The notes under the pieces are model-generated. The model ran no database searches and was not told where the DNA came from. It was given only the letters and a program-made list of their open reading frames with translations. The position numbers and the translations under genes were made by a program. A DNA stretch of 64,000 bases from a virus (Duplodnaviria; Caudoviricetes): the IMG/VR virus record IMGVR_UViG_3300042567_001420; one strand, given 5' to 3'. Positions 374-16,875 of this stretch are shown here, piece after piece (positions within the stretch are counted from its first letter, which is position 1; each line of letters starts with the position of its first letter).

Positions 374-395
374 AAGATCTCCTGTCTATAAGACT

Positions 396-424: not shown

Positions 425-435
425 CAGAAATTTTG

Positions 436-849
436 CTAGTTTGGACGAGTAATCGAAAGTATTTTTTGGATTTGTGCTTCGATAATCGGAGTTCTATTAG
501 GCCATTTAATATAATCTTTATCCGGATTTTTTAATAAATTAGCTAATAATGGCAGTATTAATGCCTCAACCTTTTTAAGTTTCTCATTAGAATCTTTATC
601 AACCAAAACCTTATAACTATCAATATCAAAATTAGAACCAGCTCCCGCTTTGATTATCTCTTCCATTGAATCAATTTTATTATATACGGAATCTAATTTA
701 TCTTTTAATAATGTTAATTCAACAGATACAGAATCAACTATATCTTGAGTTTTAACTACTGGTTTTTCTACAATAGACTCTTCTGAATCTACAGCTGTAA
801 ATCCAAAATCAAAACCATTATCATATTCAGTCGGAATCTTTATTGACAT
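436..849 (-). CDS. hypothetical phage protein, coiled-coil
   Basis: 137-aa ORF in the operon, overlapping the def stop; no motif recognised. Confidence 0.7.
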   Translation of the reverse strand: MSIKIPTEYDNGFDFGFTAVDSEESIVEKPVVKTQDIVDSVSVELTLLKDKLDSVYNKIDSMEEIIKAGAGSNFDIDSYKVLVDKDSNEKLKKVEALILPLLANLLKNPDKDYIKWPNRTPIIEAQIQKILSITRPN

Positions 850-1402
850 TTAGTGCCTCTATCATTGTTTTAACTGCGTATTTTTTAATTATCTTTTTAC
901 GCTTATTTTCGAATTTCTTTTTAGCATAATCTAATTTAAATTTAGAAACTCGGTCGGTATAATCAGTACCATTCATATGGTCATATTCATGTTGGAATAT
1001 TCTAGCAGTTAATCCATTAAACTCTTGCTCAATTATCTGCCCCGTTTCATTCTGATATGTAGCTTTAATTTTAATTGGTCTTTTAATACCTAACACAATG
1101 CCAGGATAAGATAAACAACCTTCATTAAATAATTCTTCAATATCACTATATTCTATTATCTCGGGATTAAATACTGCAATTTTAGTTTCACCTAATCCCA
1201 TTACAAATACTCGCAGGTCTAACCCTACTTGATTTGCACTCAAACCTACACCACCTAGTTGTTTCATTCTTTCAAATAAAACAGTAGAAATGCCAGGCGC
1301 GCTTTCACCTTCATTGGTAAAATCATAAAGCGCAGGGGGAGCACGCATTACCTCATTATCGGGTTCAACTAAATTTAATTTGTCTTTTCTTAATATAATC
1401 AT
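827..1402 (-). CDS. def: peptide deformylase
   Basis: All three PDF motifs: GVGLSANQVG, EGCLS, HEYDH. Confidence 0.95.
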   Translation of the reverse strand: MIILRKDKLNLVEPDNEVMRAPPALYDFTNEGESAPGISTVLFERMKQLGGVGLSANQVGLDLRVFVMGLGETKIAVFNPEIIEYSDIEELFNEGCLSYPGIVLGIKRPIKIKATYQNETGQIIEQEFNGLTARIFQHEYDHMNGTDYTDRVSKFKLDYAKKKFENKRKKIIKKYAVKTMIEALNVNKDSD

Positions 1403-3111
1403 GATATTCTACTAAAATTTTGATACTTTTGAAACTTAATTACAGACTTAAATTTATCTAGTAGTTGATCGCCTTTATGCGAAATTACAAATACGTTTGT
1501 ATCTTCACCAATTGTATTTAATAAATTCATTACATAGTCTGTGCCATTTGTGTCTAATGAAGAATCAAATACTTCATCTAATAATAGTAAATTTGTACTT
1601 GCACTATTTTTCATCTTGGCAATTGTTCGCCAAGTAAACAATAACGCTAAATCTATTCTTTGTTTTTCGCCTTCACTAAATGAAGCATAACTAAACTCGT
1701 CTCTGTGTCTAGATTTAATTACTTCATTAAAAGATTCATCCAATTCAAAGTGAACAAAGAAATCCATTGCCGCCAGATACTTATTTACTAATTTATTTAT
1801 TGCAGGTAAGTATTGACGAATGATCTTTGTTTTAATGCCGGTATCTTTTAGCAATACACTTGCAATATCTAAATAATGCTTATCTTCTGATAATTTACTT
1901 TTTTCCCCTGCAAGTGCGACCACTTCCTTGGCCAAGTTTTTAAGTTTCCTCGTTTCATCTTCAATGTTTGCCGTATCATTATTGTTGACTGCCAGGTCCG
2001 CCTGTAGCTTTTGAATGTATGTTTGAGATGCGATGATCTTTGATTGGTATCGAATGATGTTGCTTGTATATTCAGAGATTTTCTTTTCGATCGCATCAAT
2101 CTCATTAAGTCTAGTTTCAACACCTTCAAGTTGCAAGCCAAGGGCTTCAATCGCAGATTGCACTTCTTCACGTTTATGTGTATGAAGTTCGATTGCGGAT
2201 CCTTTGAGATGTTCGTCAAGATCCTGGCTACACGTTGGACAAACATCGTGGTCGTGGTAAAATTGTATGCTTGTTTCTTGATTAGTAATTCTTTCGGAAA
2301 GCTTTCTAAGCAACGCTCCCATCTCCGTACGCTTGTTACGCTTCTCATCGGCGTCAGATATAGAGGATTTACAACTCGTTTCTTTTTCTTGCTCGACCAG
2401 CATTCCTGCATTAAGTTGTGATATCTCAGCATTCGATTCAAGTATGCGCTTTTGTACATCTTCAACTTTCTTTTGTTTGTCGTTTTCGAGGGTTGCAATA
2501 TATTGTTGATGCAACTTGACCTTATTTTTACCTAAGGTAATATCATTTTCAATCTCTGTTATACGAGCTTTTATTTCAGTTGTTTTATCTTTTAATACTG
2601 CATTCATAACTGTGAAAATTTGAATGTCTAAAATATCCTCAATAATTTCACGTCTCGATCCCAATGCTAATTGCATAAAGGGAGTAAATGATGCAGATCC
2701 TAATATAACAATCTGAGTGAATGATTTGTAATTTAATTTTAAAATACTTTCTTCAAGATACTTTTGATAGTCTCTTGCGGCAGCATCTTGATTCAATAAT
2801 ACGTCATTGCAATAGATTTCAAATATGCCAGGTTTCATTCCTCGCACAATTCTATAATCTTTGTTACCGATAGAAAATTCAACCTCAACAACAAGTAACT
2901 TGCCGTTGATAGTATTCATTAACTGCGGTTTGTTAATATTCCTAAATGGTTTATTAAAAAGTACAAAACAAATTGCATCTAAAATAGTGCTTTTGCCTGC
3001 ACCGTTTTCGCCCACAATTAAAGTAGATGAGGATTTAGTAAAATCTATTTCAGTAAATTGTCCGCCGGTTGATAAGAAGTTTTTCCAACGTATTTTCTTA
3101 AATTTTATCAT
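1399..3111 (-). CDS. gp46: recombination endonuclease ATPase subunit (Rad50/SbcC-like)
   Basis: Walker A GENGAGKS, coiled coil with CPTC zinc hook, signature FSEGE, Walker B LLLLDE. Confidence 0.97.
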   Translation of the reverse strand: MIKFKKIRWKNFLSTGGQFTEIDFTKSSSTLIVGENGAGKSTILDAICFVLFNKPFRNINKPQLMNTINGKLLVVEVEFSIGNKDYRIVRGMKPGIFEIYCNDVLLNQDAAARDYQKYLEESILKLNYKSFTQIVILGSASFTPFMQLALGSRREIIEDILDIQIFTVMNAVLKDKTTEIKARITEIENDITLGKNKVKLHQQYIATLENDKQKKVEDVQKRILESNAEISQLNAGMLVEQEKETSCKSSISDADEKRNKRTEMGALLRKLSERITNQETSIQFYHDHDVCPTCSQDLDEHLKGSAIELHTHKREEVQSAIEALGLQLEGVETRLNEIDAIEKKISEYTSNIIRYQSKIIASQTYIQKLQADLAVNNNDTANIEDETRKLKNLAKEVVALAGEKSKLSEDKHYLDIASVLLKDTGIKTKIIRQYLPAINKLVNKYLAAMDFFVHFELDESFNEVIKSRHRDEFSYASFSEGEKQRIDLALLFTWRTIAKMKNSASTNLLLLDEVFDSSLDTNGTDYVMNLLNTIGEDTNVFVISHKGDQLLDKFKSVIKFQKYQNFSRIS

Positions 3112-4163
3112 GCTTCATTATAATGTTGTGCTTCTACATATAAAGTCTTTAGCAAAGTCTTTAACCGCTCTTTGTCAGAATCTGTTTCAACGCTATCTAC
3201 ATAATCAGATAACAATGTCATAGTATCTTCTAGATCAATTGAATCATCCAATGCACTAGCTTCAAACTCTGAAAAGTCTTCTATAATTTTTAATTCTATA
3301 GGATTGTTTGTATAAATAGCTTCTACAAATTTATCGAATTTTAAAATATCTTTTTTGTTAACTACTACGAGTTTAACATACTTGTTAGTAAATATTGACT
3401 TGTCAATTAGATTAGGATCTGTCTTTTCATCGTCATAGTAATGTTTAATAAACATATTAAACGGATTCTGAATAAAATCAAACAAACCAGTATCAGTATC
3501 GAAGATGTAAAATCCTTTAGGATCGCCTTCATCGTTCCAAGCCAGTTCGTATGGAGTACCCAAATATACGATGTTATCTTCGTGCGACCTAGTATGATAA
3601 TGTCCACTGAAAACAGTATTATAGGTTTTCAGCATTGCTCGATCCATACCATCATGACTATCAATACCTTTCATCATTTGAAATCCTGATAGCTCAAAAT
3701 GACCGGCACAAAAATCGGATGCGGATTTAGTTATAAAGTCTGCAATGTCATTTTCATTTTCTTTACAGATCCAAGGAATAATGTCCATTTGAGCATTGTC
3801 AAATTTTAACGTTGTAGGTTCTTGAATGATAGTAATGTTATCGTAATCTTGTAATAACAAATCTGGAGAATTTACTTTTAGGCTTTCTTTCCAGAATATA
3901 TCGTGATTGCCAATTAAGGCAATTAGATCCATTTTCTTTTCAACTATCACATCAAAGAAATATCGTCGTGCCTCAGCAAGAGACATAAAGTTAATATATT
4001 TTCTTCTATCAAATAGATCACCTAGTTGCAATATAGTTTTTATATTGTTTTGTTCTAGATATGGAAAAAGAATCTCGCTATAAAATTTCTCATAATATGC
4101 ATGGAATGCTTTAGAATCATTCCTAACACCAAAATGAGTATCGCCCAATAAACAAAGTTTCAT
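3108..4163 (-). CDS. gp47: recombination endonuclease nuclease subunit (Mre11/SbcD-like)
   Basis: GDTHFG, GDLFD, GNHD and GHYH metallophosphoesterase motifs; adjacent to gp46. Confidence 0.97.
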   Translation of the reverse strand: MKLCLLGDTHFGVRNDSKAFHAYYEKFYSEILFPYLEQNNIKTILQLGDLFDRRKYINFMSLAEARRYFFDVIVEKKMDLIALIGNHDIFWKESLKVNSPDLLLQDYDNITIIQEPTTLKFDNAQMDIIPWICKENENDIADFITKSASDFCAGHFELSGFQMMKGIDSHDGMDRAMLKTYNTVFSGHYHTRSHEDNIVYLGTPYELAWNDEGDPKGFYIFDTDTGLFDFIQNPFNMFIKHYYDDEKTDPNLIDKSIFTNKYVKLVVVNKKDILKFDKFVEAIYTNNPIELKIIEDFSEFEASALDDSIDLEDTMTLLSDYVDSVETDSDKERLKTLLKTLYVEAQHYNEA

Positions 4164-4166
4164 GTA

Positions 4167-4649
4167 TTAATTAAATTCGTTGTCTTCTCTATGACCAGAA
4201 CGGCCTGCCATATTAGAATCAGTCTCGCGAACTTCTACTCGGCAGCACCAAACTCTTTTAGCTTCTTCGCTGCCGCAATTTGGCAAAAAGATTGTGTTAA
4301 TATATTCATATAAGAAGTCAGATAAACCTTCACACCCTGTACGCTCTACTTCTGTGATCTTAGCTAGTTTTAATCTACCCAATTCCAATAGATGTTCGCG
4401 CATTGGATCATCTTGTGCAACTAGCAGAGTGTGGTCAAACCATTCTTCTAGCTTGTCTTTAAGTGGTCGTAGCCCACCAAAATCAGTTACCCAATTACGA
4501 GCATCCAATGTATCTGCTTCAAATTCGAAATGAAAACTCATGGCATAACCATGAATCAAATTACAATGTGAATCTGCACGCCATTGCCGATATGCAACCG
4601 GACCTATTTGTCTATATGTTTTTGTTGAGAAGAATTTTTTATTTGCCAT
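4167..4649 (-). CDS. queD: 6-carboxytetrahydropterin synthase (QueD-like)
   Basis: SHCNLIHGY, VTDFGGL, FDHTLLV, GCEGLS, VRETDSN: PTPS/QueD T-fold motifs. Confidence 0.85.
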   Translation of the reverse strand: MANKKFFSTKTYRQIGPVAYRQWRADSHCNLIHGYAMSFHFEFEADTLDARNWVTDFGGLRPLKDKLEEWFDHTLLVAQDDPMREHLLELGRLKLAKITEVERTGCEGLSDFLYEYINTIFLPNCGSEEAKRVWCCRVEVRETDSNMAGRSGHREDNEFN

Positions 4650-4687
4650 CTCTTGCCTCTTTAAGTAAGTTTGACGACATGCAGAAT

Positions 4688-5710
4688 TTATAAAGCGGGA
4701 TGAATGTTCGGGTAAGACCGCTGGTTTGTTAAAGCCTCATATGTTTGAGAATTATACCATGTGTTTAAAGATGATAAAATATCAGACATATCATATACAG
4801 GTGTCCAATCTGCAAGACGTTTAAACATTGTACTATCAGCAACTAACGATGGAGGATCTCCATCGCGTCGTTTATTAATAAATGTTACAATTTCTTTATT
4901 GGTAATTTTTTCTACAAGCATTTGAATTTGTAGATTAGAATGCCCCTGAAGCATCCCTAAATTATATATGCCTTGAATAGAATTGTCAATAGCTTTTATG
5001 TGTGCAAGTGCAATATCTTGAACATGAATATAATCTCTAATACAAGTTCCGTCGGGCGTATCATAGTCTGCACCATTTAAAGTGAATGATGTATTATGTT
5101 TGACTGCTTCAAATAGTTTGGCAAAGATATGTGTTGCATTTGGTTCTTGCCCATGCTGACCTTTATCGTCAGCTCCGCATGCATTGAAATATCTAAATGC
5201 AGTGAAATTTAAGTTGTGGCATCGATGATACCATTCCAATAAATGTTCAACCATTAATTTAGATTGACCATAAGGAGAAATAGGATCGACCTTATCGTTT
5301 TCCCTCAATGGTGTTTTTGTTGTAGGAATGCCGTAAACAGATGCGCTACTACTAAAAATAATCTTAGTCTTTGGAATATGTTTAGCAACGAAATCTAAAA
5401 GCAAATTTGTTTTAGATACATTGTTGTGAAAGTAATGTCCTGGATTTTTCATACTAGGACCAACAAGGCTAGTGCCTGCACAATGAATAATTGCTACAGG
5501 ATAAACCTTTTTATATAGACTAAACGCATCCATGTCTGTAAAATCACATTGAAGAAACTCATCTTGAAATGCATCAAGATGATCGTTGTGTCTGTTATCA
5601 ATACCGATAACTTCGTAGCCTTGTTTCTTTAATTCGATGCAAGTCTGGCCGCCGATATAACCGGCAGAACCCGTAACAACGACTAATTTAGTACTTGGCT
5701 GCTGGGACAT
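4688..5710 (-). CDS. galE: NAD-dependent epimerase (UDP-glucose 4-epimerase-like)
   Basis: TGSAGYIG, FSSSASVYG, YGQSK, FRYFNACGA, GTCIRDYIHV. Start moved to MSQQ at 5710. Confidence 0.92.
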   Translation of the reverse strand: MSQQPSTKLVVVTGSAGYIGGQTCIELKKQGYEVIGIDNRHNDHLDAFQDEFLQCDFTDMDAFSLYKKVYPVAIIHCAGTSLVGPSMKNPGHYFHNNVSKTNLLLDFVAKHIPKTKIIFSSSASVYGIPTTKTPLRENDKVDPISPYGQSKLMVEHLLEWYHRCHNLNFTAFRYFNACGADDKGQHGQEPNATHIFAKLFEAVKHNTSFTLNGADYDTPDGTCIRDYIHVQDIALAHIKAIDNSIQGIYNLGMLQGHSNLQIQMLVEKITNKEIVTFINKRRDGDPPSLVADSTMFKRLADWTPVYDMSDILSSLNTWYNSQTYEALTNQRSYPNIHPAL

Positions 5711-6857
5711 GATCTCTATAATCCTTACCGCTACGATACCATTTAGCATTATCCTCAAACATAATATCCAAACAACGATCAATAGTACCAGATGTCCAGT
5801 CAGACAACTTGCCTAGATTTGCTCGCTCTTGAACCAGCAATGTATTTAATTTAAATACTGCGTCATCTTGTGACCATGGAATATAAAGACATTCGCGATC
5901 ATTAGCAAATGATTCTGGGAAAGATCTATAAGCAGGATACAAACAATTTGTACCTAATGCATCTGCCTCTGATGCAGTGTTGCTTACCCAATCCTGCAAT
6001 GCACAATTAAACAATACTCGAGAATCGCCCAACAATTCATAATACTCATTCTTTTTAAGATTTTCATAGATTTTAAAATTATGAGTCTTTTCCAATGCTC
6101 GCGCGCGAGTCAAATACTTTTCGTTATTACTACGCAAAGGTCCACCCGATAACACAGCAAATTCTACACCCGGGTTAACTGTATGATATCTTTCAATAAG
6201 ATCCATAAAGAAATCAGGTTGTTTCTCCTGATCAAATCTTGCAGCAAATACCACACGTTGTTTACGCTGATTAAATGGAATACGATTTGCTACACGACTA
6301 CGAACTTCATCTTTATCAAATGCAAGTCCGGAGATATTAAAGATTGGCGCTTCCCAACCTGCAATTTTCATATGAGCAACCATTTCTTCGTTAGATGCAA
6401 GTACACCTGTAACAAATTGATCTGTCATTTTCTCATAAAGACCCATCCACTTCTGCATATCCCATACGTGAACAAAATCATCGGGGTCAATAGATTGTGC
6501 AAGACAACGAACAAAAATTCTAGGTTGATATTCGTAGCTTACTTGATCCATAATATAAGGCAGCGCCTCAATACCGGGAGTAAACATATCTTCAAAAAAG
6601 ATTGTGTCTTCAAATGTTATTTCGCCAGCTTTCATCTTCTTAATAAGATTAGCCATTTGTGTCAGCGAATAATAACTACGCCCATGTGCATCAAGCACTT
6701 GACCGGTAACAATTGCTTTAGAGTCATCTAGAATATCACCATGAATTACTTCATAGTCAATACCTCTGCGTTTAAATGCAGCTTCGCTCCATTGTTGCAA
6801 TTGTAAAGTATAGCGACCTTCATAAGGTTCTAAACCCATATAATATAATTTACTCAC
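5688..6857 (-). CDS. GT-B fold glycosyltransferase
   Basis: C-terminal VVFAARFDQEKQP and QDWVSNTASEADALG...YPAYRSFPE resemble the GT4-type nucleotide-sugar binding region. Confidence 0.75.
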   Translation of the reverse strand: MSKLYYMGLEPYEGRYTLQLQQWSEAAFKRRGIDYEVIHGDILDDSKAIVTGQVLDAHGRSYYSLTQMANLIKKMKAGEITFEDTIFFEDMFTPGIEALPYIMDQVSYEYQPRIFVRCLAQSIDPDDFVHVWDMQKWMGLYEKMTDQFVTGVLASNEEMVAHMKIAGWEAPIFNISGLAFDKDEVRSRVANRIPFNQRKQRVVFAARFDQEKQPDFFMDLIERYHTVNPGVEFAVLSGGPLRSNNEKYLTRARALEKTHNFKIYENLKKNEYYELLGDSRVLFNCALQDWVSNTASEADALGTNCLYPAYRSFPESFANDRECLYIPWSQDDAVFKLNTLLVQERANLGKLSDWTSGTIDRCLDIMFEDNAKWYRSGKDYRDHVPAAKY

Positions 6858-7302
6858 CTGCTATCCTTTCAAAACTAATTCTGCAACCGTTTTCACCATC
6901 TTCTGATACTTCAATAGTATAATCCCTATCAGGCCATTGTGCCGCACATTTATCATAAAGCTCACATGCCATCATTTCGCATGACTTATAATCTAAATGT
7001 AGTGTGCCATCAGAATACCATCGTTCCATAATGCGTTTTGCCTGAATAAATTCTACATCTCGATCATCATGAAATACTTCCATCTCTACGCGGAAATGAA
7101 AAATATGTCTATGCGGTGTTCCTAAGAATGAAACATCCAGCCAATCGCCTGTTGCTAATTTAGGATCAGTTGCTGCTTGGGGATATTTATGAATACCCTC
7201 TTTACGAAAGGTAACCCAAATAGAACTTTTCTTTTTAATTAATTTACTGTGTATAATTGTATCTGTAAAAAATACTGGCTCGTTTGAAATAATATCGGTC
7301 AT
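6850..7302 (-). CDS. dpdL: QueD-paralog T-fold protein, DpdL-like (putative 7-carboxy-7-deazaguanine decarboxylase)
   Basis: LGTPHRHIF matches the LxxxHRHxF signature I recall for DpdL; also SCE and VSEDGENG T-fold motifs; adjacent to dpdA. Confidence 0.7.
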   Translation of the reverse strand: MTDIISNEPVFFTDTIIHSKLIKKKSSIWVTFRKEGIHKYPQAATDPKLATGDWLDVSFLGTPHRHIFHFRVEMEVFHDDRDVEFIQAKRIMERWYSDGTLHLDYKSCEMMACELYDKCAAQWPDRDYTIEVSEDGENGCRISFERIAGE

Positions 7303-8585
7303 GCAAATAAATCCTCAAGTGAAACTGGTGGTTGTGTGTTAACTGGTTCAGACTCCATATACTTTCCTACATTTCTTTCCCAATCTTCAAAATCAGAAAG
7401 ATTCTTAACATCAAACAATGTAGCGTATTCATTCTCACAGCCTTTTTCTCTACAGAACTTTAAGAACAATTCTTTCGATTCTGTTAAAGCATTGACATCG
7501 TGAGTAAAATTATGTACGTTTGTTAAAATAAAAGCAAGACGTGCTCGCATAATATCAACAAATTTTCCGCCTGCTTCTAAATGAACGCCGACCCCTCGGT
7601 TCATTAAGATATGGTATTCTTCAGGAGTATAATTTGTTCCACATACTGCATTAATTTCTGTAGTAACTGTTCTATAAATGTTAGAATACTCTCTGCCCAT
7701 TTTTACAGATGTGCCGCCATATGGGGAACCTGCTGCCTTTTTAGCGAATGAAAAATAAAACAATCCATTATCTAATGACATGGAATGTGTAGTAGAGTCA
7801 TATGAAATATCAATACCTTCATATAGACCAGATTGACTAAAACAAATATAAGGCAGAATGCGACGTAATGCACCTACACCCAATACGTGTAAATGAAATG
7901 GTCTAGTATACGGCATCTGTGTAACATAGAATGCTCGTTTAACGTCTTCTAATTGTCCCATACCCAGAGCAGCCGATCCCATAGCAAGACCACCGATACG
8001 ATGATGCAATGCCGGAGTAATTTCTTCGAGTACTAATTTTGCCCAGCGTGAATATGATTCTTGCGATGAACCCTGCATAATAACAAATGGTCTACATTTG
8101 CTACCCATCTTATCGAATGTTTCAATTTGCGATTTTACATTCCTGCCCGTTTGTCTTGCATAATCATCAAAATTATCCATGTCTGCATATCTACGCTTAG
8201 TATCAATCTTAGATGATACGCCACTTGTAGAAGTTGTCTTAACAGGAATCTCATCAAACGACATACCAATGTCTGCATATGCACCTTGATTCAAATAAAC
8301 TTTTTCTCTAACTTCTGGAGTATTTTTTAAACCGCGAGTAATAATCTGCAAACCTCCAGAGTCAGCATGAATATTATTAATTGAAGCACGAAACTTTTGT
8401 AACTTAGGTCCAAAGTTCTTTTCCGTAAATCCATTATACAATAATGAGAATGTGTGGTTGTTTTGTTTATGACATACTTTAGCAATCATGTCAAGCATCA
8501 TTTCTAATACATCGGGGTCATTACATTGTTCTGCACCCAGCCGCAAATATGCTGGGCCAGAAATTACGTATTCATATGTTCTCAT
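7299..8585 (-). CDS. dpdA: DNA 7-deazaguanine transglycosylase (TGT fold, DpdA-like)
   Basis: TGT-family motifs DSGGLQ, MSFDEIP, HLHVLGVG, SYDS; context of folE/queD/queE. Confidence 0.85.
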   Translation of the reverse strand: MRTYEYVISGPAYLRLGAEQCNDPDVLEMMLDMIAKVCHKQNNHTFSLLYNGFTEKNFGPKLQKFRASINNIHADSGGLQIITRGLKNTPEVREKVYLNQGAYADIGMSFDEIPVKTTSTSGVSSKIDTKRRYADMDNFDDYARQTGRNVKSQIETFDKMGSKCRPFVIMQGSSQESYSRWAKLVLEEITPALHHRIGGLAMGSAALGMGQLEDVKRAFYVTQMPYTRPFHLHVLGVGALRRILPYICFSQSGLYEGIDISYDSTTHSMSLDNGLFYFSFAKKAAGSPYGGTSVKMGREYSNIYRTVTTEINAVCGTNYTPEEYHILMNRGVGVHLEAGGKFVDIMRARLAFILTNVHNFTHDVNALTESKELFLKFCREKGCENEYATLFDVKNLSDFEDWERNVGKYMESEPVNTQPPVSLEDLFA

Positions 8586-9955
8586 GCAAACAGGCTTTCT
8601 AATGAAGAAGTGACTTCTTCTTTTGGTATAAAATTAGGATCTTTAGATAAGTATGTGTCGTTGTCTGTGTAAATTATATTATATTTAGACTTATTTGTCA
8701 ATATACTTTTGACATCATCTATAGCTAATTGTGATCTATTTAGGATTTTAATAAAGTCTGAATATTTGATTTCGGTATAATCATTAATTTTTGCAGAATC
8801 AGATCGTGACAAAGATGTTTGAGTGTAACTAGATAAGAATTTTTTCCATCTATCAGATGTTTGAAAATCCAAATGTTTGATATACTGCAACGCATCATGG
8901 TTGCGTTGTTTTCGATCAGCATTATATTCTACTTTTAATACTTCGGCAACTTCATTTAACGGTAACCGAATATAATATGCAGGATCAAAATTAGTTACCC
9001 ATTCAGATTTGTCAATAACAATACAAGGCATATGACCTAAACATTCAAAAAATGTGAACGGGTAATTTTCTCTTAGTGAAGGGTTAAAGTGAACCTTTGC
9101 AGATTTAATAAAGTCAACTTTTTCTTTACCAACAATACTAGCTTTAATCTCATAATCGGTAATACCAAGTTCTGCAAGACGAGCTTCAAACTTTTTCTTG
9201 CCGTTAGCATTCGTCATAATTTTTGCAGGCAATCCAGTCTCTTTAATTACTTTTAAAAATGCTTCTGGATTTTTACGATCTTCCCACCGACCAATATATA
9301 AGACGCCTTTTCTTTCTGAATAATCACTTGTGAGCAATTCTCTTTCAGACATAGGCATACTTAAATGTTCTACATCAACTCCGCCATTATTTTTAATTTC
9401 AGTTACATTACGTGCAGATTGTGTGCCAATATAACAACTTTCAAGATTCATTAAGTTGTTAAAAAATTCATTACAACTTTCTAAGAATACGCCTTTGAAT
9501 TTTCTAGTATCACGGAACACCATACTCTCTTCATGCGTGTAAAATACTACAGGAATGTAACTATTAAGATCAAAACTCAATACTGCGGGCATAGCCTCTA
9601 AAGAATTACATACTACCATATCATAGATATTAGTATGAAAAGCATTCATAACAGCATCACGGAAATTAATCATCTTTTCAAAGTTAATTGAATCAGTAAA
9701 TGCAAAAGTACCGGTATGATTTTTATATGACAAGGCATTTTTCGGAGCAATTAAATTTGCGCCCAATGATTCAACTAATTTTGCAAACTCATTTGTTGTG
9801 GGTTTGTCCGTAATAATATCAACCTTCCAGTCAATTTTATTTGCCATTTCAACAAATCCCTTTGCAAATTGTCCAATCCCACCATGCGGAACAAGGTGTT
9901 GATCGCTAATGCAAAACGCAACTCTCTTTTTATAAAGACGCATATTACTCACCAA
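8582..9955 (-). CDS. GT-B (GT4-like) glycosyltransferase with C-terminal extension
   Basis: N-terminal PHGGIGQF, LYIGRWEDRKNP, and FNPSLRENYPFTFFE. Confidence 0.85.
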   Translation of the reverse strand: MVSNMRLYKKRVAFCISDQHLVPHGGIGQFAKGFVEMANKIDWKVDIITDKPTTNEFAKLVESLGANLIAPKNALSYKNHTGTFAFTDSINFEKMINFRDAVMNAFHTNIYDMVVCNSLEAMPAVLSFDLNSYIPVVFYTHEESMVFRDTRKFKGVFLESCNEFFNNLMNLESCYIGTQSARNVTEIKNNGGVDVEHLSMPMSERELLTSDYSERKGVLYIGRWEDRKNPEAFLKVIKETGLPAKIMTNANGKKKFEARLAELGITDYEIKASIVGKEKVDFIKSAKVHFNPSLRENYPFTFFECLGHMPCIVIDKSEWVTNFDPAYYIRLPLNEVAEVLKVEYNADRKQRNHDALQYIKHLDFQTSDRWKKFLSSYTQTSLSRSDSAKINDYTEIKYSDFIKILNRSQLAIDDVKSILTNKSKYNIIYTDNDTYLSKDPNFIPKEEVTSSLESLFA

Positions 9956-10454
9956 GAATTTTAATTAAGTGTTTTGTTTGATGCATCGCATCATCTAAGG
10001 CATTATGATACGTACCTTCGCGTTTGTCTTCTGGAATCCAATTGAACATTGCTTTAGCAGTTCGGTAACAACGATCATCCCAGCATTTCCAAGGTGGTTC
10101 TCTGCCTGTAATGAAGTATGCATTACCTAAAATTGTGTTATCAAATACAGCACCGTTTCCCCAAATAGGTAAACTCTTAGGGCCAAACCATAACTCAAAT
10201 TTATCCAATGCTTCTTGCAATGATATATTATTCTTTGTTAATTCTCGCAAGGCTTCTTTATTTTGTTTAGACCACCATGCAACGGTATCTTTAGAAATAT
10301 GCATTCCAGCTTCTTTACAGCTAGCAAGATCAATGGTGCAATAAAATGTATCTACAATTTTACTACCTTCAAATTTTACTGCACCAATTGAACAAATTGC
10401 TGCGTGTGATCTTGTTGACATTGTTTCCAAGTCAACCATTACATTAATTGTCAT
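9945..10454 (-). CDS. DEDDh 3'-5' exonuclease
   Basis: VMVDLET, WGNGAVFD, HNALDDA motifs. Confidence 0.88.
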   Translation of the reverse strand: MTINVMVDLETMSTRSHAAICSIGAVKFEGSKIVDTFYCTIDLASCKEAGMHISKDTVAWWSKQNKEALRELTKNNISLQEALDKFELWFGPKSLPIWGNGAVFDNTILGNAYFITGREPPWKCWDDRCYRTAKAMFNWIPEDKREGTYHNALDDAMHQTKHLIKILGE

Positions 10455-11134
10455 TTACATCCTTGTCGGGCAATCTGATAAAACTCGTTTCTTACTGCTG
10501 GATCATTTTTAAATCCACCACCTAAACGAACTGTTACTGTAGAGCTACCTGTGTCTTCAACACCTCTAGATTTTACGCAATAATGTTGAGCATCAATCAA
10601 GACTGCAACATCTTCAGTATCAAGAATATACTGTAAAGTATGAAACACTTGCTCTGTTAAGCGTTCTTGAATCTGAGGGCGTTTGCTAAAATATTCTACA
10701 ATACGATTGATCTTAGATAGACCAAGAACCCTAGTCTTAGGTACATAAGCAACTGTTGCTAATCCATCGATAACAACAAAATGATGCTCGCAATTAGATT
10801 GCACATTTACATTGCGCTCACATACCATTTCGTTATACTGCATTTTATTATCTACAGTAGTGCATTTTGGAAATGCATCATAATCGAGACCCCAAAAGAT
10901 TTCATTAACATACATTTTAGCAACACGCTTAGGTGTTTCAATTAGACTATCATCTGTAAGATCAAGGCCAAGTGTTTCCATGATCTTGGCAAATAAAGGT
11001 TCGATAACTGCTATCTTATCTTTACGATCTGGAATTAATGATTTTTTTGTTGGGGTTTCAACACCCATTTTAACTAGGTGTTCGTGAACTCGTTGACCCA
11101 ATTCTGGATCGCATTTAGTTTTATTGAAACTCAT
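10451..11134 (-). CDS. folE: GTP cyclohydrolase I
   Basis: ETPKRVAKM, CEHHF, GLSKINR, PQIQERLT, HYCVKSRG. Confidence 0.97.
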   Translation of the reverse strand: MSFNKTKCDPELGQRVHEHLVKMGVETPTKKSLIPDRKDKIAVIEPLFAKIMETLGLDLTDDSLIETPKRVAKMYVNEIFWGLDYDAFPKCTTVDNKMQYNEMVCERNVNVQSNCEHHFVVIDGLATVAYVPKTRVLGLSKINRIVEYFSKRPQIQERLTEQVFHTLQYILDTEDVAVLIDAQHYCVKSRGVEDTGSSTVTVRLGGGFKNDPAVRNEFYQIARQGCK

Positions 11135-11195
11135 TTGATAACCTTCCTTTGTGATGGTTTATTTTTGACAGTATGTTACCGTTGCGTAACATAAG

Positions 11196-11203
11196 TATTT
11201 ATT
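11196..11203 (-). promoter_or_regulatory. possible late-promoter variant (AATAAATA) upstream of folE
   Basis: One mismatch to T4 TATAAATA; the same variant occurs upstream of gp8, gp25 and gp13. Confidence 0.4.
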
Positions 11204-11267
11204 ACTTTGATTTTGTTGTTGGATCACACCCGCATACGCCTTACTGACTTCTTACGGGTGACCATAA

Positions 11268-11462
11268 TTATGCCTTAGTTTTCGCTTCTGCTCTAGCTGC
11301 TTTTTCGGCAGTAATTTCATTGCGACGTGCTTTAACTGCTTTAGATAACTCTGCTAATGCTTTGCGTGTACGTGTACCTGCGGCTGCATTGCCTTTGTTA
11401 AATTTCTCATTCTCAGCATTATATGCTGCTAAACTTGTTTCGATGTCGTTATGTGCGCTCAT
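11268..11462 (-). CDS. histone H1-like (Hc1-family) small basic protein
   Basis: KGNAAAGTRTRKAL...KARR matches the bacterial Hc1-like pattern (KGNKAAGTRARK). Confidence 0.7.
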   Translation of the reverse strand: MSAHNDIETSLAAYNAENEKFNKGNAAAGTRTRKALAELSKAVKARRNEITAEKAARAEAKTKA

Positions 11463-11478
11463 ATTATTTTCCTTTTAG

Positions 11479-12348
11479 TTAAGTGCCCCATGCGTTTTTA
11501 AACAATGGGATTTGTAGTCGGTCGGAATATCTCCAACCTTTTTGCATTGCGTACTCTGCAACGCTGCGATTATTAAGAGAGTACAGCCGCTCAGTCCCAC
11601 CGAGAGGCATAAGATAAACAGGACCTGAGAAACCAGCTTTACGATATGCATTTACTGCCTCTTCTGCTTCTTCTGCATCTTCTTTAGATCCAATTACAAA
11701 TTTAAGATATGTATATCCTACCCATTCATACCCTGCTACAATTTCTGGGCAAATTGCATCTTCCCACTTTTCACCTGATACCGATAGTTTAGGTGAAACT
11801 GAAAATGTTAAAGCATCACAACCTCTTTTGCTTGTGCGACCTTTATTATTTAGTGTCCAATTTAAAAGATATTGTTTAAATTCATTAGACAAAGGTTGTG
11901 TTCCATTTGTCTCAAATGTCAATTCTTTTAATGCTATCATTTTTTCATTACCGAGTAATTCCGGATATTGTTTTTGCCAACCTAATAGAGGCTCACCTCC
12001 AGTAATAACTAGGTGTTCGTCTTGCCATTTTTTATACGGGAGTGTATCGACGATTGCTTCCACAACATCTTTAACATCGAGTACAGGGCTAAGATGCTTA
12101 AAACGAGGGTCCCAACTAGCATAGGAATCACAGCCAGTGTGTACGAGAGGCAAGTCATTATAATTTTTAAAGCTTTCGGCCTTAATCGAGATAACATTTC
12201 GTTCATCGCTTTTTTCGCCTTTTGGCATGCCGAACCCGTCGCAAGTAAAATTGCAACCAAATGTTCTTAAGAAGACAGAGGGCGCACCCATATAGCGGCC
12301 TTCACCCTGAATTGAATAAAATAGTTCTGAAATTTTAAGTTTAGCCAT
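11479..12348 (-). CDS. queE: 7-carboxy-7-deazaguanine synthase (radical SAM)
   Basis: ISELFYSIQGEG, FLRTFGCNFTC, VITGGEPLL, ETNGT, SVSPK, RLQ. Start moved to MAKLK at 12348 (GGAG RBS). Confidence 0.93.
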   Translation of the reverse strand: MAKLKISELFYSIQGEGRYMGAPSVFLRTFGCNFTCDGFGMPKGEKSDERNVISIKAESFKNYNDLPLVHTGCDSYASWDPRFKHLSPVLDVKDVVEAIVDTLPYKKWQDEHLVITGGEPLLGWQKQYPELLGNEKMIALKELTFETNGTQPLSNEFKQYLLNWTLNNKGRTSKRGCDALTFSVSPKLSVSGEKWEDAICPEIVAGYEWVGYTYLKFVIGSKEDAEEAEEAVNAYRKAGFSGPVYLMPLGGTERLYSLNNRSVAEYAMQKGWRYSDRLQIPLFKNAWGT

Positions 12349-12373
12349 AATGACTCCGTTCAACAATACTCAT

Positions 12374-12402
12374 ATTATATAGTGTTTAATCATCTAAGTC
12401 AA
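12374..12402 (-). promoter_or_regulatory. sigma70-type early promoter heading the modification cluster
   Basis: TTGACT-N17-TATAAT upstream of queE. Confidence 0.85.
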
Positions 12403-13021
12403 GTGGATTACTTGAATCGTCCGAAATTATTTTGTTCTTTTTAGGAGTTGAAATTACCCGTTTTTCAATATCAATAGTATCCATTTGCCGTTTTAAGTAA
12501 TCTAAGAACTGATTACCAAATTCGCCGTTGTCATGTTCTTGAAGAATTAATGAATCAATATCCATATTCTCAATCAATTTATACTTAGTAGCTTGTTGCT
12601 TCTTTTCTTTTTGGATACGTCTAATAAAAGCAAAGTATATAATTTGAGTATAATATGCGAAAGGATTTGATCCTTTAGATGGGTCAAATTTGACAACAGC
12701 AGTTAGACAATTTTCAATTCCATCTGAAATCATATCATCTTTAAATGTATAATTAATGAAATTAGATTTATAAGATAAATGTGTTGCAATTTTAATAAAG
12801 CATTCACCTATGTAGTTAGATACAATAGGTGGTTCTTTTCCTGCGGCCGCCGCATCAACTACACTTTGTCTATATTCAATAAGAGCTTGTAAAAACTTTT
12901 TATTGTCTACATAGTGAGACGAAGTAGGAATTTTTACTTCCTTAACTACTTCAGCTATTTCAGTGGAGAGTTCTTCCACGTCTTTTAGGGGGTTCTTTGT
13001 TTTCATTATGCTCTTCTTCAA
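12386..13021 (-). CDS. gp55: late transcription sigma factor
   Basis: HYVDNKKF, IGECFIKIATHL, NPFAYYTQIIYFAFIRRIQKEKKQ. Start uncertain. Confidence 0.95.
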   Translation of the reverse strand: MKKSIMKTKNPLKDVEELSTEIAEVVKEVKIPTSSHYVDNKKFLQALIEYRQSVVDAAAAGKEPPIVSNYIGECFIKIATHLSYKSNFINYTFKDDMISDGIENCLTAVVKFDPSKGSNPFAYYTQIIYFAFIRRIQKEKKQQATKYKLIENMDIDSLILQEHDNGEFGNQFLDYLKRQMDTIDIEKRVISTPKKNKIISDDSSNPLDLDD

Positions 13022-13400
13022 GTGTGTTTATAAATTTATCTACAATTTCTTGGATTTGTTCTTTTTCCAAATCCTTTTCCTCAACCTCAGAAATTTCAGG
13101 ATCTGCCCTGGAATCTATGAATTTTATATAATTATCTTTTAATGTTTCTTTTGTATCAACAGCAACTATAATATGATCTGTTGATATCTCAAAACTTTCT
13201 GTGTTTCCTAATGCTACCCAGGGGGATAAAATATATGATTCTACAATCATATCGCCCCTTGGCATTCTAATCTGATTTAATACTACAGGATCTGTAATTG
13301 ATATGTTACGCCCTTTAAGGTCTTTACATTCATCGAATGTTTTACATATTATATCTTCACCACTTGTTAATTTTAAAATTTTAACATTCGGATCGTTCAT
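12960..13400 (-). CDS. conserved hypothetical protein downstream of uvsW
   Basis: KILKLTSGEDII N-terminus typical of a small Sm-like phage family; ATGA overlap with uvsW. Confidence 0.65.
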   Translation of the reverse strand: MNDPNVKILKLTSGEDIICKTFDECKDLKGRNISITDPVVLNQIRMPRGDMIVESYILSPWVALGNTESFEISTDHIIVAVDTKETLKDNYIKFIDSRADPEISEVEEKDLEKEQIQEIVDKFINTLEEEHNENKEPPKRRGRTLH

Positions 13401-14884
13401 TGAATAGGTATCCTTAGTAGTTTGTAATCAAAATGCTCATCATTATAAATTTTAATTCTTTCAATCATGTGTAACAACGTATAATTCTTTTTAGACTTCC
13501 ATGTTAAATCATCACCTATATCATATAGATTGCAACTATCTTTTGTTTCACTTGTTCTCAATCCACGACCAATAGATTGTAAATTTCGAACACGGGATTT
13601 TGAGGGAGATGCAAAAATAATATTATGCAGGTTTTTAATATTTATCCCCGTAGAAAAAGTTCCGTATGAAGCCACTATTATAGCATCCTTTTCGGTTTCT
13701 GTCAATCGACGAATTTCCTCACGTTGTTCTGTATCAGTTCCACCATAAACAAAAAACACTTTTCGGTTTTCTGCTTTAGATTGGATCATCTCATGTAGCA
13801 TTTTGCCATGCTTCTCAACATATTGGAATAACACTAAACTATTGCCGGTTTGTTTGATTGCAAGATTTCGGATAAATTTATTACGAGGTTCATATCCAAC
13901 AATAAAGTCCATTTCTTCTTGGTATGTTTTTCCTTTAAGTGCTTTTTTTACTTCATCTGGATAATCCAAAACAAGATTATAAATTTGCAGATCAGCAAGC
14001 GTTTTACTTGTGATTAATTTTTTAGTTGTTGTAACTTTATAAACGGGACCAAACATTCCTTCAAGAACTAGCTTGTGCGTTTGAGTACCATCTAATGTAC
14101 CAGTAGTTCCAATTCTATAAGGAGTATCCGGCATTTTATTTAAAATACCTGTTAAAGATTTAGCTTTAAATAAATGCGCTTCATCTCCATACACTGCTTT
14201 AAAATCTGCAAAGAATTGTTTAGGCAATTTGTAAATAGATTGCCAAGTACTAATAATTACATCATACTCATTAGACTTTTCGTGACCACCATAAATGCGA
14301 TGACAATGCTCAGAAGTTTTCCAATTATTAATACTAGAATAATCTTGAAAATCGGAATACATCTGTTCAACAAGTGATGTAGTAGGAACAAGAATTAATT
14401 GCCGTCTTCCTCTTAGCTCATGCCAGCGAATTAAACAGTAAATAATATAAGATTTACCTGAACCGGTAGGAGACAACAATAAACGTCTGCCATCATTAAT
14501 AGCTTTATGTATTGCTTCAATCTGATAATCTCTAATTTCTAGAGGTGTACCTTTAGATGCAATATTTAAACTTTTAACAAATTCTGTTACTTCATCCAAC
14601 GTGCAACCATCTGCAGTTTTTTCATACTGCGAATCATCAAATATGTAATCGCGTTCTTTTGCAAATTGTTCTAAATAGTCTTTTAGACCAATATAAAGCT
14701 CTTTGGTAAACATAGAAAAAAGGCGAACGCGTCCATCCCACATACGAGATTTATACAGAGGATGAAACTTCGCTCCTGGAACTTCAAATGAAAAATGGTC
14801 ATTTAGTTCTTGTGCAATTGAAGGTTCAGTATCAACTTGCAGATACACTTCATTCTTTTTTCTTACGCTTATTTTGTCAGACAT
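13397..14884 (-). CDS. uvsW: UvsW RNA-DNA/DNA helicase
   Basis: SPTGSGKS, GDEAH, GTTGT, QSIGRGLR. Confidence 0.96.
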   Translation of the reverse strand: MSDKISVRKKNEVYLQVDTEPSIAQELNDHFSFEVPGAKFHPLYKSRMWDGRVRLFSMFTKELYIGLKDYLEQFAKERDYIFDDSQYEKTADGCTLDEVTEFVKSLNIASKGTPLEIRDYQIEAIHKAINDGRRLLLSPTGSGKSYIIYCLIRWHELRGRRQLILVPTTSLVEQMYSDFQDYSSINNWKTSEHCHRIYGGHEKSNEYDVIISTWQSIYKLPKQFFADFKAVYGDEAHLFKAKSLTGILNKMPDTPYRIGTTGTLDGTQTHKLVLEGMFGPVYKVTTTKKLITSKTLADLQIYNLVLDYPDEVKKALKGKTYQEEMDFIVGYEPRNKFIRNLAIKQTGNSLVLFQYVEKHGKMLHEMIQSKAENRKVFFVYGGTDTEQREEIRRLTETEKDAIIVASYGTFSTGINIKNLHNIIFASPSKSRVRNLQSIGRGLRTSETKDSCNLYDIGDDLTWKSKKNYTLLHMIERIKIYNDEHFDYKLLRIPIQ

Positions 14885-15324
14885 TACATCATACCGTTTG
14901 TGAACTTAGACCATTCAATACTATTCTTGATATCCCATGTTCTACTGTTTAAGGATCTTATAATTTGTTCTAATTGATACATAACAGTTTTAAAGTATTC
15001 TACTTTGTCTTGTAGTAAAATTAAATCTGCATCAACCTGCAAAAATTCGTCCATCTCATTTTTCAATGGTTTGTTACCTTGCCATTGAGTCCAACCTTCA
15101 TCTGATAATTCAAGCTGGGTCATTTCTCCCCTGTAATACTTGTATTTCTTTCTACGAAGGTTGAGATATTCAGACTCTGCTTTGCGTAGGTTAAGCCGAG
15201 TAGATGTTAAAAAATTCAAATACTTAGAATGTAATAAAGGTGTGCGAGCAGATTCATGTCCAAGATTAGTCTCATTAATCTTACAATCATCTGCCCACAT
15301 TTCCTGCAGGTCAGATAATTTCAT
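14884..15324 (-). CDS. uvsY: recombination mediator UvsY
   Basis: LHSKYL, RTWDIKNSIEW; adjacent to uvsW. Confidence 0.93.
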   Translation of the reverse strand: MKLSDLQEMWADDCKINETNLGHESARTPLLHSKYLNFLTSTRLNLRKAESEYLNLRRKKYKYYRGEMTQLELSDEGWTQWQGNKPLKNEMDEFLQVDADLILLQDKVEYFKTVMYQLEQIIRSLNSRTWDIKNSIEWSKFTNGMM

Positions 15325-16244
15325 TACTGAGGGCTAATCTGAATAATCTGAGCAGGGTTGCCCTGGAAATTAAATGAACCGTAGTGATTCAATGAGATTG
15401 TTGGATCAAGCCAAATGTCGCCACCGATATCTTGCCAACGTCTGCTGAATGTATAATCTTCTGACAAGTAACGTTTGTCTTTGGGATCAATCATTGTGTC
15501 GAAGAATGCATAGAAGAAGTCTTGCAAATCTGGCGGAGTATTCAAATCATTGTTATACTTTAACTCTGGATATGCAGCAATCATCTTGTCAATTGCTTCA
15601 CGCTTAATCATCATAAAGCCTGTAGCTCCGTCGTGCAATTTAATTACACCATTTTCAATAGCAATTTGTTTTGACTCACGATTAACAAACTTAAAGTTAA
15701 TCGCATAGTCGGAACCAGCGGCAGCAATATCTCTATCAGAAATATCTTGACCGGGTTTAGAATTAATGCTATCTTTAATACGTTGCCAGTTGACGCCCTT
15801 TTTAGGATATGCGCCTACACAAACTTCTTTGTTGTGAGCAATTAATTTAAGTACATCTTCAACTTGAAACTCAATATCAGCATCAATAAACAACAAACGA
15901 GTGTAATTGCTTTGAAGAAAATATGCAACCAACACATTGCGAGCACGAGTAACTAAAGACTCATTTGCAATAGTACCAAACGCCAATGGGATTTGATGTT
16001 GATTGAAGAATGTCAATGTGCGAACCATTGAACGGAAATATGCCTCTGTAAGCATACCACCATAACAAGGAGTTGCCACAAAGATTCTTTCTTTACGCAA
16101 ATCATCAATATTGATTTGCAATTGACCTGGTTGTGCGGCAGGGGGTGCCGCAGGGGGTGCCGCAGCTGCGACTGGGGGTTTGTTAAACTTAGGAACCGGA
16201 ATTTTTGGAATGTTCTTCAGTCCAGGTTTATTGTTGTTAGCCAT
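15324..16244 (-). CDS. GT-A fold glycosyltransferase-like protein with Pro/Ala-rich N-terminus
   Basis: IFVATPCYGG, ESLVTRARN, LFIDADI (DxD), YLSEDYTFSRRW. Confidence 0.75.
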   Translation of the reverse strand: MANNNKPGLKNIPKIPVPKFNKPPVAAAAPPAAPPAAQPGQLQINIDDLRKERIFVATPCYGGMLTEAYFRSMVRTLTFFNQHQIPLAFGTIANESLVTRARNVLVAYFLQSNYTRLLFIDADIEFQVEDVLKLIAHNKEVCVGAYPKKGVNWQRIKDSINSKPGQDISDRDIAAAGSDYAINFKFVNRESKQIAIENGVIKLHDGATGFMMIKREAIDKMIAAYPELKYNNDLNTPPDLQDFFYAFFDTMIDPKDKRYLSEDYTFSRRWQDIGGDIWLDPTISLNHYGSFNFQGNPAQIIQISPQ

Positions 16245-16260
16245 AAAATCTCCATATTAA

Positions 16261-16845: not shown

Positions 16846-16863
16846 TTCTTTCCTCCGTTATTA

Positions 16864-16871: not shown

Positions 16872-16875
16872 AGGC

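Follow-up and report, generated by a model that had tools for sequence, protein, structure and literature searches.

A phage that modifies its DNA has to locate its guanines and exchange them fast enough, ahead of host nucleases and packaging, and this problem is posed here by a modification cassette in which a base-exchange enzyme and the neighbouring glycosyltransferase (GT) end in closely similar heptapeptides. The window, the whole stretch of 64,000 nt that was analysed, comes from a T4-like marine phage. The initial annotation read both tails as epitopes for the sliding clamp gp45 that tether the two enzymes to the clamp. The features concerned are the following:

7299–8585, minus strand: DpdA2-like DNA guanine transglycosylase with TGT fold, 428 aa (phrog_10773, AlphaFold/Foldseek)
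7302–7322, minus strand: SLEDLFA, C-terminal heptapeptide of DpdA, putative gp45 epitope (homolog conservation, model helix)
7323–7364, minus strand: DpdA linker, residues about 408–421 (entropy, coil in the model)
8582–9955, minus strand: tailed GT-B (GT4-like) glycosyltransferase, 457 aa from TTG (model and Foldseek)
8585–8605, minus strand: SLESLFA, C-terminal heptapeptide of the GT, putative gp45 epitope (homolog tails, model helix)
8606–8644, minus strand: GT linker, residues about 438–450 (coil in the model, sequence variable among homologs)
5688–6857, minus strand: second GT of the cassette, without the tail, ending in HVPAAKY (PF00534, E 2e-5)
12386–13021, minus strand: gp55 late sigma factor (phrog_234, E 3e-57)

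Both tails are as first described: DpdA ends in NTQPPVSLEDLFA (PPVSLEDLFA; stop codon at 7299–7301) and the GT in EEVTSSLESLFA (TSSLESLFA; stop codon at 8582–8584), and no further ORF among the 77 non-overlapping ORFs of the window has such an end. The flexible linker proposed ahead of each tail is likewise seen in the AlphaFold models as a low-confidence coil followed by a five-residue helix on the motif. In DpdA the coil spans residues 406–422, with pLDDT falling from 80 to 57, and the helix residues 423–427; in the GT the coil spans 438–451 (pLDDT from 70 to 51) and the helix 452–456. The gp55 of the window, a known clamp client in T4, carries only a degenerate acidic-hydrophobic end (SSNPLDLDD), so that the exact motif is not common to all expected clamp clients.

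Pfam searches matched neither DpdA nor the tailed GT, and PDB sequence-profile searches gave no match for DpdA and only a weak one for the GT (6eji, E 0.066); fold searches were therefore required to place both proteins. The DpdA ORF matches phrog_10773 with an E of 3e-99 and is 35% identical to the KVP40/VH7D-type protein over residues 5–290 (tblastn), and the DpdA2 of VH7D has been validated experimentally (PMC10516641). Its AlphaFold model (pLDDT 91.5) resembles Z. mobilis TGT in a Foldseek search of the PDB (E 1.6e-9, TM 0.5–0.6, probability 1.00), and the best 50 matches listed are tRNA-guanine transglycosylases throughout, in agreement with a TGT (beta/alpha)8 fold, with weak matches to Pfam TGT across the homologs (6 of 41 members, best E 1.5e-4). 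Invariant in 41 homologs are D75-S76-G77-G78, D111 and Y262-D263-S264-T265, whose aspartates probably correspond to the catalytic Asp102 and Asp280 of TGT. The surrounding cassette holds FolE, QueD and QueE, a context of deazaguanine synthesis, and a megablast search of the phage collection with this region returned no match. On sequence and model, ORF 7299–8585 is a DpdA2-like enzyme, predicted to exchange guanine for 7-deazaguanine on DNA.

The model of the tailed GT (pLDDT 84.8) shows the two Rossmann domains of the GT-B fold and resembles WlaC (6eji), MshA, BshA, HepE and WaaG in Foldseek (E 1e-12 to 1e-10), and its homologs match PF00534/PF13692 weakly. Its start is probably the ATG at 9943, giving 453 aa, because the homologs are 453 aa long. 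The clamp-type tail together with the position in the dpdA cassette suggests DNA as the acceptor, and the tail can reasonably be taken as a separate line of evidence for DNA as the substrate of this GT. The motif is missing from the second GT and also from its homologs in BUCT-ZZ01 and the contigs G011, G006, G007 and G009.

If the tails are clamp epitopes, the DNA polymerase of the same phage might be expected to end alike, and comparison with the gp43 C-terminus had been set beforehand as a test. The window encodes neither a polymerase nor a clamp (judging from gene order in the relative G003, both genes would lie about 21–36 kb outside its left end), and the comparison was made in IMG/VR relatives, where it was positive. 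The close relative contig G003 (80–90% nucleotide identity, overlapping window positions 1–19015) encodes gp45 and a gp43 polymerase ending in ATLEGLFA, next to VSLEDLFA and SSLESLFA in the window. The polymerase end ATLEGLF[AGSE] was found in 17 of 17 clade contigs carrying a polymerase, and all 16 further clade contigs with both genes combine polymerase ATLEGLF[GASE] with DpdA [ST]LE[DE]LF[AGT] and GT [STNG]LExLF[AVK]. The tails thus share the hydrophobic-acidic consensus of the polymerases of the relatives, which also fits T4 SLDFLF. A gp45-type clamp is present in the relatives as PF09116 (G003, G004, G005 and BUCT-ZZ01) or as gp45 (G011 and G012).

Within genomes the motif is confined almost entirely to these proteins. 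In the proteome of G012, a complete clade genome of 202.7 kb with 287 ORFs and 66,455 residues, the motif core, written as [ST]L[DE]x[LFMI][FYW], is found at three places in all, the C-terminal ends of polymerase, DpdA and GT, where about 0.05 C-terminal matches were expected. The strict C-terminal regex likewise hit 3 of its 287 ORFs, and it found polymerase, DpdA and GT only among the 97 ORFs of G003 and the 285 ORFs of BUCT-ZZ01, and polymerase and DpdA only in ACP17, X1 and Ps15. One extra match in G011 was the sole exception among the complete genomes scanned.

The proposal also depended on conservation of the motif in homologs, which we observed for both enzymes. In 109 of 120 DpdA homologs (38–94% identity) it is kept behind a hypervariable linker and, as in the window and the clade GT homologs, lies 0–3 residues from the stop codon. 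In a set of 41 homologs, the most distant of them 41% identical, L423 is invariant, F427 and P420 are each kept in 95%, E424 in 88% and L426 in 85%, with a column entropy of 0–0.9 bits in the motif versus 2.2–3.0 bits at linker positions 413–419 and 421. Codons of the DpdA tail vary synonymously at Leu, Phe and Ser, which argues for selection at the protein level. The strict regex matched 49 of 120 GT homologs, and about ten more, from the clade of at least 65% identity, differ at the first position only (N/G for S/T), this clade ending in [STNG]LExLFx; the rest form a clade of 52–59% identity with a different tail. In the homolog P0112 an internal STLEGF has decayed and is followed by a C-terminal extension with a new terminal SLDSFF.

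Two types of tail could be distinguished between lineages. The LF type is found in the window clade, in ACP17 (polymerase PSLDDLFE, DpdA TTLDELFE), in Xanthomonas phage X1 (SSLESLFG, QSLEELFG) and in Stenotrophomonas phage Ps15 (SSLEDLFGW, NSLDDLFG). The FF type is found in BUCT-ZZ01 (polymerase STLDDFFS, DpdA ASLDSFFD, GT GSLEDFFND) and contig L338 (DTLESFFS, HSLDSFFGDS, SYLEEFFSEH). From clade to clade the motif of DpdA and GT therefore switches together with that of the polymerase, a co-variation that spans few independent clades, the DpdAs of L338 and BUCT being 50% identical. A parallel co-variation of the terminal residue (A/G/E) between polymerase and DpdA was seen across isolates and fails within the clade (polymerase G, DpdA A); because of this mismatch, and because the last codon is held to NNA by the ATGA overlap, we dropped it. 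KVP40-type DpdA2 has no tail, although KVP40 has gp45 and the polymerase tail TLESFFG, and the DpdA tail of pf16 is degenerate (VTLDLMCA), so that tethering is not obligatory for DpdA function. A DpdA profile search of the jumbo-phage fragments G006, G007 and G009 (each 20–29% complete) found none.

That such a tail would bind gp45 is suggested by the biochemistry of T4 and RB69. In T4, gp43, gp55 and gp33 bind gp45 through C-terminal epitopes that sit on variable linkers and can stand in for one another, and a crystal structure shows the RB69 clamp with the C-terminal 11-mer of the polymerase (PMC2988020). The T4 motifs cited in the initial annotation proved essentially right when the sequences were read directly (gp43 ends in ASLDFLFG, gp55 in SLDFLYEAND). 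Since the T4 epitopes are interchangeable, clamp tethering is the best reading of the window tails, and since the tail is shared with the polymerase, which most likely holds the clamp by it, both enzymes are probably on the replication clamp. Co-folding of the gp45 trimer with DpdA residues 379–428 weakly supported an interaction, with an ipSAE of 0.45 compared with 0.18 for the best control, with at least 51% of contacts shared between runs and a partner pLDDT of at least 40. Of 78 solved complexes 51 attained the mark set for such co-folds, as did 2 of 108 mismatches; at scores of 0.60 or below, just 5 of 78 solved complexes reached it, and all four passing mismatches also lay in this range. 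The score may moreover mirror likeness to a known structure, because a clamp-peptide complex has already been solved. Considering the polymerase tails of the relatives, the conservation in homologs and the joint change between clades, the tethering proposal is supported, and the tails of DpdA and GT are probably T4-type gp45 epitopes that would tie base exchange and glycosylation to the clamp.

A different replisome partner, such as the clamp loader gp44/62, gp32, the helicase loader or the host beta clamp, could in principle bind the tail, given that the evidence consists of identity with the polymerase tail, from which the partner is deduced, and that the gp45 co-fold is weak. Bacterial beta-clamp motifs (QLxLF) are likewise short, hydrophobic and often C-terminal, but the S-L-[DE]-x-L-F spacing fits T4 SLDFLF and not Q-L-x-L-F. 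Every lineage with the tail encodes its own gp45, and in T4 and RB69 it is specifically gp45 that the very end of gp43 binds (PMC2988020), so we consider another partner unlikely. That the tail is instead a C-terminal degron, or a turnover or localisation signal of three early enzymes, for example for a host AAA+ protease, is more improbable still. A hydrophobic C-terminus ending in LFA, as in the window, is superficially ssrA-like, but the last position accepts any of A, G, T, S, E, V, D or K, one to three extra residues are tolerated (FFND, FFGDS, LFGW), and conservation falls on the internal L, L/F and F. It is the ATGA overlap into the following gene, and not the peptide, that fixes the final codon as NNA, and a degron would be implausible on a replicative polymerase.

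The same overlap could suggest that the likeness is a nucleotide by-product of translational coupling, combining a Shine-Dalgarno sequence with ATGA (CTT GAG GAT TTA TTT GCA TGA). Indeed, both window genes end in ATGA overlapping the start that follows, dpdA has GAGGA 9 nt ahead of the next ATG, GAG outnumbers GAA (30 to 5) and NNA is the last codon without exception. However, four codons from two families encode Leu at position −5, and Phe and Ser are likewise written with synonymous codons, although the residues themselves do not change; the motif is kept where the next gene is 35–71 nt away (Ps15, X1 and BUCT-ZZ01), and the polymerase carries it in another genomic context. On the codon evidence we rejected coupling as the cause, and we give this explanation very little weight. 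Chance likeness of two peptides of just seven residues has a negligible probability, as about 0.05–0.10 matches are expected per genome versus three observed and the motif recurs across several genera and in over 100 homologs from metagenomes; this conservation refutes it.

As putative gp45 epitopes, the tails resemble those of T4/RB69 gp43, gp55 and gp33 in their position at the extreme C-terminus, their consensus [ST]-L-[DE]-x-[LF]-[FY] (in T4, SLDFLFG of gp43 and SLDFLY of gp55) and the divergent flexible linker ahead. They differ in that motif position 4 is acidic or small instead of Phe, that clamp binding is predicted from sequence, and that the clients are a base-exchange enzyme and a glycosyltransferase rather than a polymerase and transcription factors. 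PCNA uses PIP-boxes to recruit clients that modify DNA behind the fork, such as DNMT1 and UNG2, and clients of the bacterial beta clamp use QLxLF. In these systems, too, a short linear motif brings DNA-modifying or repair enzymes to a sliding clamp and couples them to replication, whereas clamp family and motif are different here and the chemistry would be whole-base exchange plus glycosylation in a virus.

The catalytic core of the window DpdA, its TGT fold and the FolE/QueD/QueE cassette correspond to phage DpdA2 of the Vibrio phages VH7D and nt-1 (Hutinet et al. 2019, 2023), while proteins of the KVP40/VH7D type differ in their C-terminal region and lack the clamp motif. Base insertion by DpdA2 is regarded as post-replicative in PMC10516641, a paper in which the word 'clamp' does not occur, and in the paper library that was searched, no relevant paper was found that pairs DpdA or deazaguanine with a clamp. 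For T4 alpha-glucosyltransferase, an interaction with gp45 had been reported in vitro (ref. 20 of bioRxiv 10.64898/2025.12.06.692756) and failed to reproduce in this 2025 preprint. The T4 idea, one phage DNA GT on the clamp during replication and a second acting later, has a parallel in the window, where one GT is tailed and the GT at 5688–6857 is not. T4 a-gt and b-gt carry no SLDFLF-like tail, whereas the enzymes here bear an explicit polymerase-like epitope, and the tailed GT is GT-B/GT4-like and has no sequence relationship with the a-gt and b-gt families of T4.

Mechanistically, once the trimeric clamp is loaded on phage DNA, each tail, hanging on a flexible, fast-evolving linker, would dock in its hydrophobic patch, expected on the C face as for the RB69 peptide, or between two of its subunits. 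Base-exchange enzyme and sugar transferase would then be confined to one-dimensional travel along newly replicated DNA, on a clamp either shared with the polymerase in toolbelt fashion or left behind the fork, and we infer that tethering would raise the speed or completeness of modification. More tentatively, and with more doubt than confidence, we propose a clamp assembly line, in which the gp45 trimer carries polymerase, DpdA and GT on its three sites, or the enzymes ride clamps behind the fork, and exchange followed by glycosylation would be co-replicative and processive.

A polymerase-type clamp epitope on DpdA and GT thus offers a concrete mechanism for finding guanines, one-dimensional scanning on the replication clamp, which is open to test in the cultivable phages ACP17, Menderavirus, Xanthomonas X1 and BUCT-ZZ01. 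It also revives the disputed T4 notion of clamp-coupled DNA glycosylation, now with an explicit motif. The tail lends support to a role of the GT in DNA glycosylation, and the clade would hence carry a sugar-bearing DNA modification. More broadly, searching T4-like genomes for the tail may be an inexpensive way to find DNA-acting enzymes. If the assembly-line reading is true, the tail would be a portable tag that flags otherwise unrecognisable phage enzymes as DNA-acting, an idea that fits the jumbo-phage GT homologs, which end in SLFEGL beside adjoining polymerases ending in STFDDLFSFG.

The coordinates that the initial annotation gave for the C-terminal tails of DpdA (SLEDLFA) and the adjacent glycosyltransferase (GT; SLESLFA) proved correct on re-reading both ORFs, and 0 of the 75 remaining non-overlapping ORFs of the window carried such an ending. 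The source is a T4-like marine myophage (window GC, 35%); for gp46, identity is 51% to the Methylophilales phage Melnitz protein and 49% to the cyanomyophage versions.

827-1402, minus strand: peptide deformylase (phrog_2890), adjoining gp46
6850-7302, minus strand: QueD-like paralog (phrog_17812), directly after dpdA
7299-8585, minus strand: DpdA, 428 aa, C-terminal end ...NTQPPVSLEDLFA
8582-9955, minus strand: GT, 457 aa from TTG, C-terminal end ...EEVTSSLESLFA
12386-13021, minus strand: gp55 late sigma factor, ending ...SSNPLDLDD, a degenerate acidic-hydrophobic end without an aromatic residue

Neither the 428-aa DpdA nor the 457-aa GT gave a Pfam match. DpdA belongs to phrog_10773, and its residues 5-290 are 35% identical to a KVP40/VH7D-type protein, the VH7D member of which is DpdA2, a DNA transglycosylase validated by experiment (PMC10516641). 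Its AlphaFold model (41 homologs as input, pLDDT 91.5) matched tRNA-guanine transglycosylases in the PDB (E 1.6e-9, TM 0.5-0.6), and there is no variation in D75-S76-G77-G78 or Y262-D263-S264-T265. The GT model (pLDDT 84.8) showed a GT-B/GT4-type glycosyltransferase fold, with WlaC, MshA, BshA, HepE, and WaaG as best structural matches. In both models, the tail forms a 5-residue helix at the end of a coil with falling confidence. The listed GT start is the TTG at 9955; because close homologs are nearly all 453 aa, the ATG at 9943, which overlaps the exonuclease gene upstream of it (9945-10454) at its 3' end, is likely the true start. The surrounding cassette lies between gp55 and gp47/gp46 and comprises FolE, QueE, QueD, the QueD-like paralog, a second GT, an epimerase, and the exonuclease. 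QueC did not turn up in the window ORFs that were searched. In the same cassette of the related metagenomic contig L338, a 606-aa ORF (3926-5746) with intein domains PF14890 and PF07591 lies between QueD and FolE and may be a QueE carrying an intein.

The 64-kb window holds neither polymerase nor clamp gene, and polymerase tails were read from relatives, not from the window phage itself. IMG/VR contig G003 (64.5 kb, 80-90% nucleotide identity) overlaps window positions 1-19015, runs on past the window's left end, and encodes a 218-aa gp45 and a gp43 ending in ...AKPQATLEGLFA. In 16 further clade contigs, each with polymerase and DpdA genes, the polymerase ends in ATLEGLF[GASE], DpdA in [ST]LE[DE]LF[AGT], and the GT in [STNG]LExLF[AVK]. 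The comparison with the gp43 C-terminus that the initial annotation had called for thus revealed a matching tail in these relatives. A strict pattern for C-termini ([ST]L[DE]x[LFMI][FYW] plus 0-3 residues) matched only polymerase, DpdA, and GT in G003 (97 ORFs), Synechococcus phage BUCT-ZZ01 (285 ORFs), and the complete clade genome G012 (202.7 kb, 287 ORFs), only polymerase and DpdA in ACP17, X1, and Ps15, and the three proteins plus one extra 1,467-aa protein in G011. Across the G012 proteome (66,455 residues), the core motif occurred three times, all at the polymerase, DpdA, and GT C-termini, versus 0.05 expected.

Clamp clients with short C-terminal epitopes are a textbook concept. The T4 tails of gp43 (...ASLDFLFG) and gp55 (...SLDFLYEAND) essentially fit the form given in the initial annotation and, together with gp33, are described as highly similar, hydrophobic-acidic, and interchangeable sliding-clamp-binding epitopes behind a divergent, change-tolerant linker; the RB69 clamp crystal structure includes the polymerase's C-terminal 11-mer (PMC2988020). 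Neither T4 a-gt nor b-gt has such a tail at its C-terminus, and an earlier in-vitro report of an a-GT/gp45 interaction was not reproduced by a 2025 preprint (10.64898/2025.12.06.692756). Our literature search found no paper linking DpdA or 7-deazaguanine modification to the clamp, and the word 'clamp' is absent from PMC10516641. From their likeness to T4-type epitopes, we infer gp45 binding for the tails of DpdA and GT, and class both enzymes as putative new, unexpected clients of this epitope. Co-folding the G003 gp45 trimer with DpdA residues 379-428 gave an ipSAE of 0.45 versus 0.18 for the best control, with at least 51% of contacts shared between runs and partner pLDDT of at least 40, an outcome that the method rates as weak support. 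In calibration, solved complexes reached the mark in 51 of 78 cases and mismatched pairs in 2 of 108, passes at or below 0.60 being unreliable; because a like complex is solved, the result may reflect likeness to that known structure. As gp55 has a degenerate end in the window phage (relatives: G012, NPLDMDD; G011, SFIDMID), DpdA and GT are far closer to the polymerase tail than this classical transcription client, and clamp coupling of late transcription in this clade may be weaker or different.

Tails fall into LF and FF types, and those of polymerase and DpdA change type together between clades.

C-terminal tails by lineage
LF, window clade: polymerase ATLEGLFA; DpdA VSLEDLFA; GT SSLESLFA
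LF, ACP17: polymerase PSLDDLFE; DpdA TTLDELFE; GT none seen
LF, X1: polymerase SSLESLFG; DpdA QSLEELFG; GT a distant homolog elsewhere in the genome, without motif
LF, Ps15: polymerase SSLEDLFGW; DpdA NSLDDLFG; GT none seen
FF, BUCT-ZZ01: polymerase STLDDFFS; DpdA ASLDSFFD; GT GSLEDFFND
FF, contig L338: polymerase DTLESFFS; DpdA HSLDSFFGDS; GT SYLEEFFSEH

Both FF lineages are related (DpdA identity 50%), so independent LF/FF events are few. The L338 DpdA (P0112, 8125-9459) carries STLEGF internally in decayed form; after an insertion of ~30 residues comes a new motif at the very end, HSLDSFFGDS, an arrangement that fits a need for the epitope at a free C-terminus. Exceptions are the degenerate DpdA tail of pf16 (VTLDLMCA) and KVP40-type DpdA2, whose differing C-terminal region lacks the motif.

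Conservation in homologs was borne out, with the strict motif kept in 109 of 120 DpdA homologs (38-94% identity); the other 11 comprise two fragments and a remainder of mostly near variants. An alignment of 41 sequences shows L423 unchanged throughout and conservation of 95% for F427 and P420, 88% for E424, and 85% for L426, while linker positions 413-419 and 421 have entropies of 2.2-3.0 bits. Chance likeness of the tails is argued against by their replication across genera, and binding to another common partner, the host beta clamp included, by the T4-type spacing. The likeness could also be a by-product of translational coupling, as both genes end in NNA-TGA and have an ATGA overlap with the start codon of the following gene (7299-7304; 8582-8587). 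The codon data count against this: among 35 distinct tail DNAs, Leu is encoded by CTT/TTA/CTA/TTG, Phe by TTT/TTC, and Ser by TCA/TCT/TCG, and this synonymous variation indicates selection on the peptide. The last codon is NNA in every case (GCA, ACA, GGA, or TTA) because of the ATGA overlap; the terminal residue is therefore free, set by the overlap and not by the motif, which argues against a degron.

Similar ends were seen elsewhere. The gp26-like baseplate hub protein (phrog_150; 55407-56102, plus strand) ends in ...DLEGLQNFFV, a C-terminus resembling the clamp motif, here on a structural protein and with Gly in place of the clamp clients' Ser/Thr. Its homologs end in GL[EDQ]xFF[VAHLG] in every lineage scanned (BUCT, GLETFFA; ACP17, GLDDFFV; pf16, GLQDFFH; X1, GLDDFFL; Ps15, GLEDFFG; G011/G012, GLQNFFV). 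Contigs G006, G007, and G009 (loci L203-L216), fragments of apparently ~350-kb phage genomes (size inferred from CheckV completeness of 20-29%), encode GT homologs (52-57% identity) ending in SLFEGL, SLFEFV, or LFDGL, as well as FolE, QueD, QueE, the QueD-like paralog, and the second GT; the fragments, 20-29% complete, yielded no DpdA homolog. Their polymerases end in STFDDLFSFG or SMFDELFTFG, which resembles the RB69 gp43 C-terminus.

Through these tails, base exchange and one glycosylation step would be tied to clamps on phage DNA under replication. DpdA and GT would sit either on the polymerase's own ring or on clamps that remain after the fork has passed, and in both cases the search for substrate would become one-dimensional. 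The second GT (5688-6857, minus strand; 64% identity to its BUCT-ZZ01 homolog) lacks the tail in all lineages, and only one of the cassette's two GTs is thus predicted to be clamp-tethered. This suggests a division of labour between the tailed and tail-less GTs, similar to an earlier proposal for a-gt and b-gt of T4.
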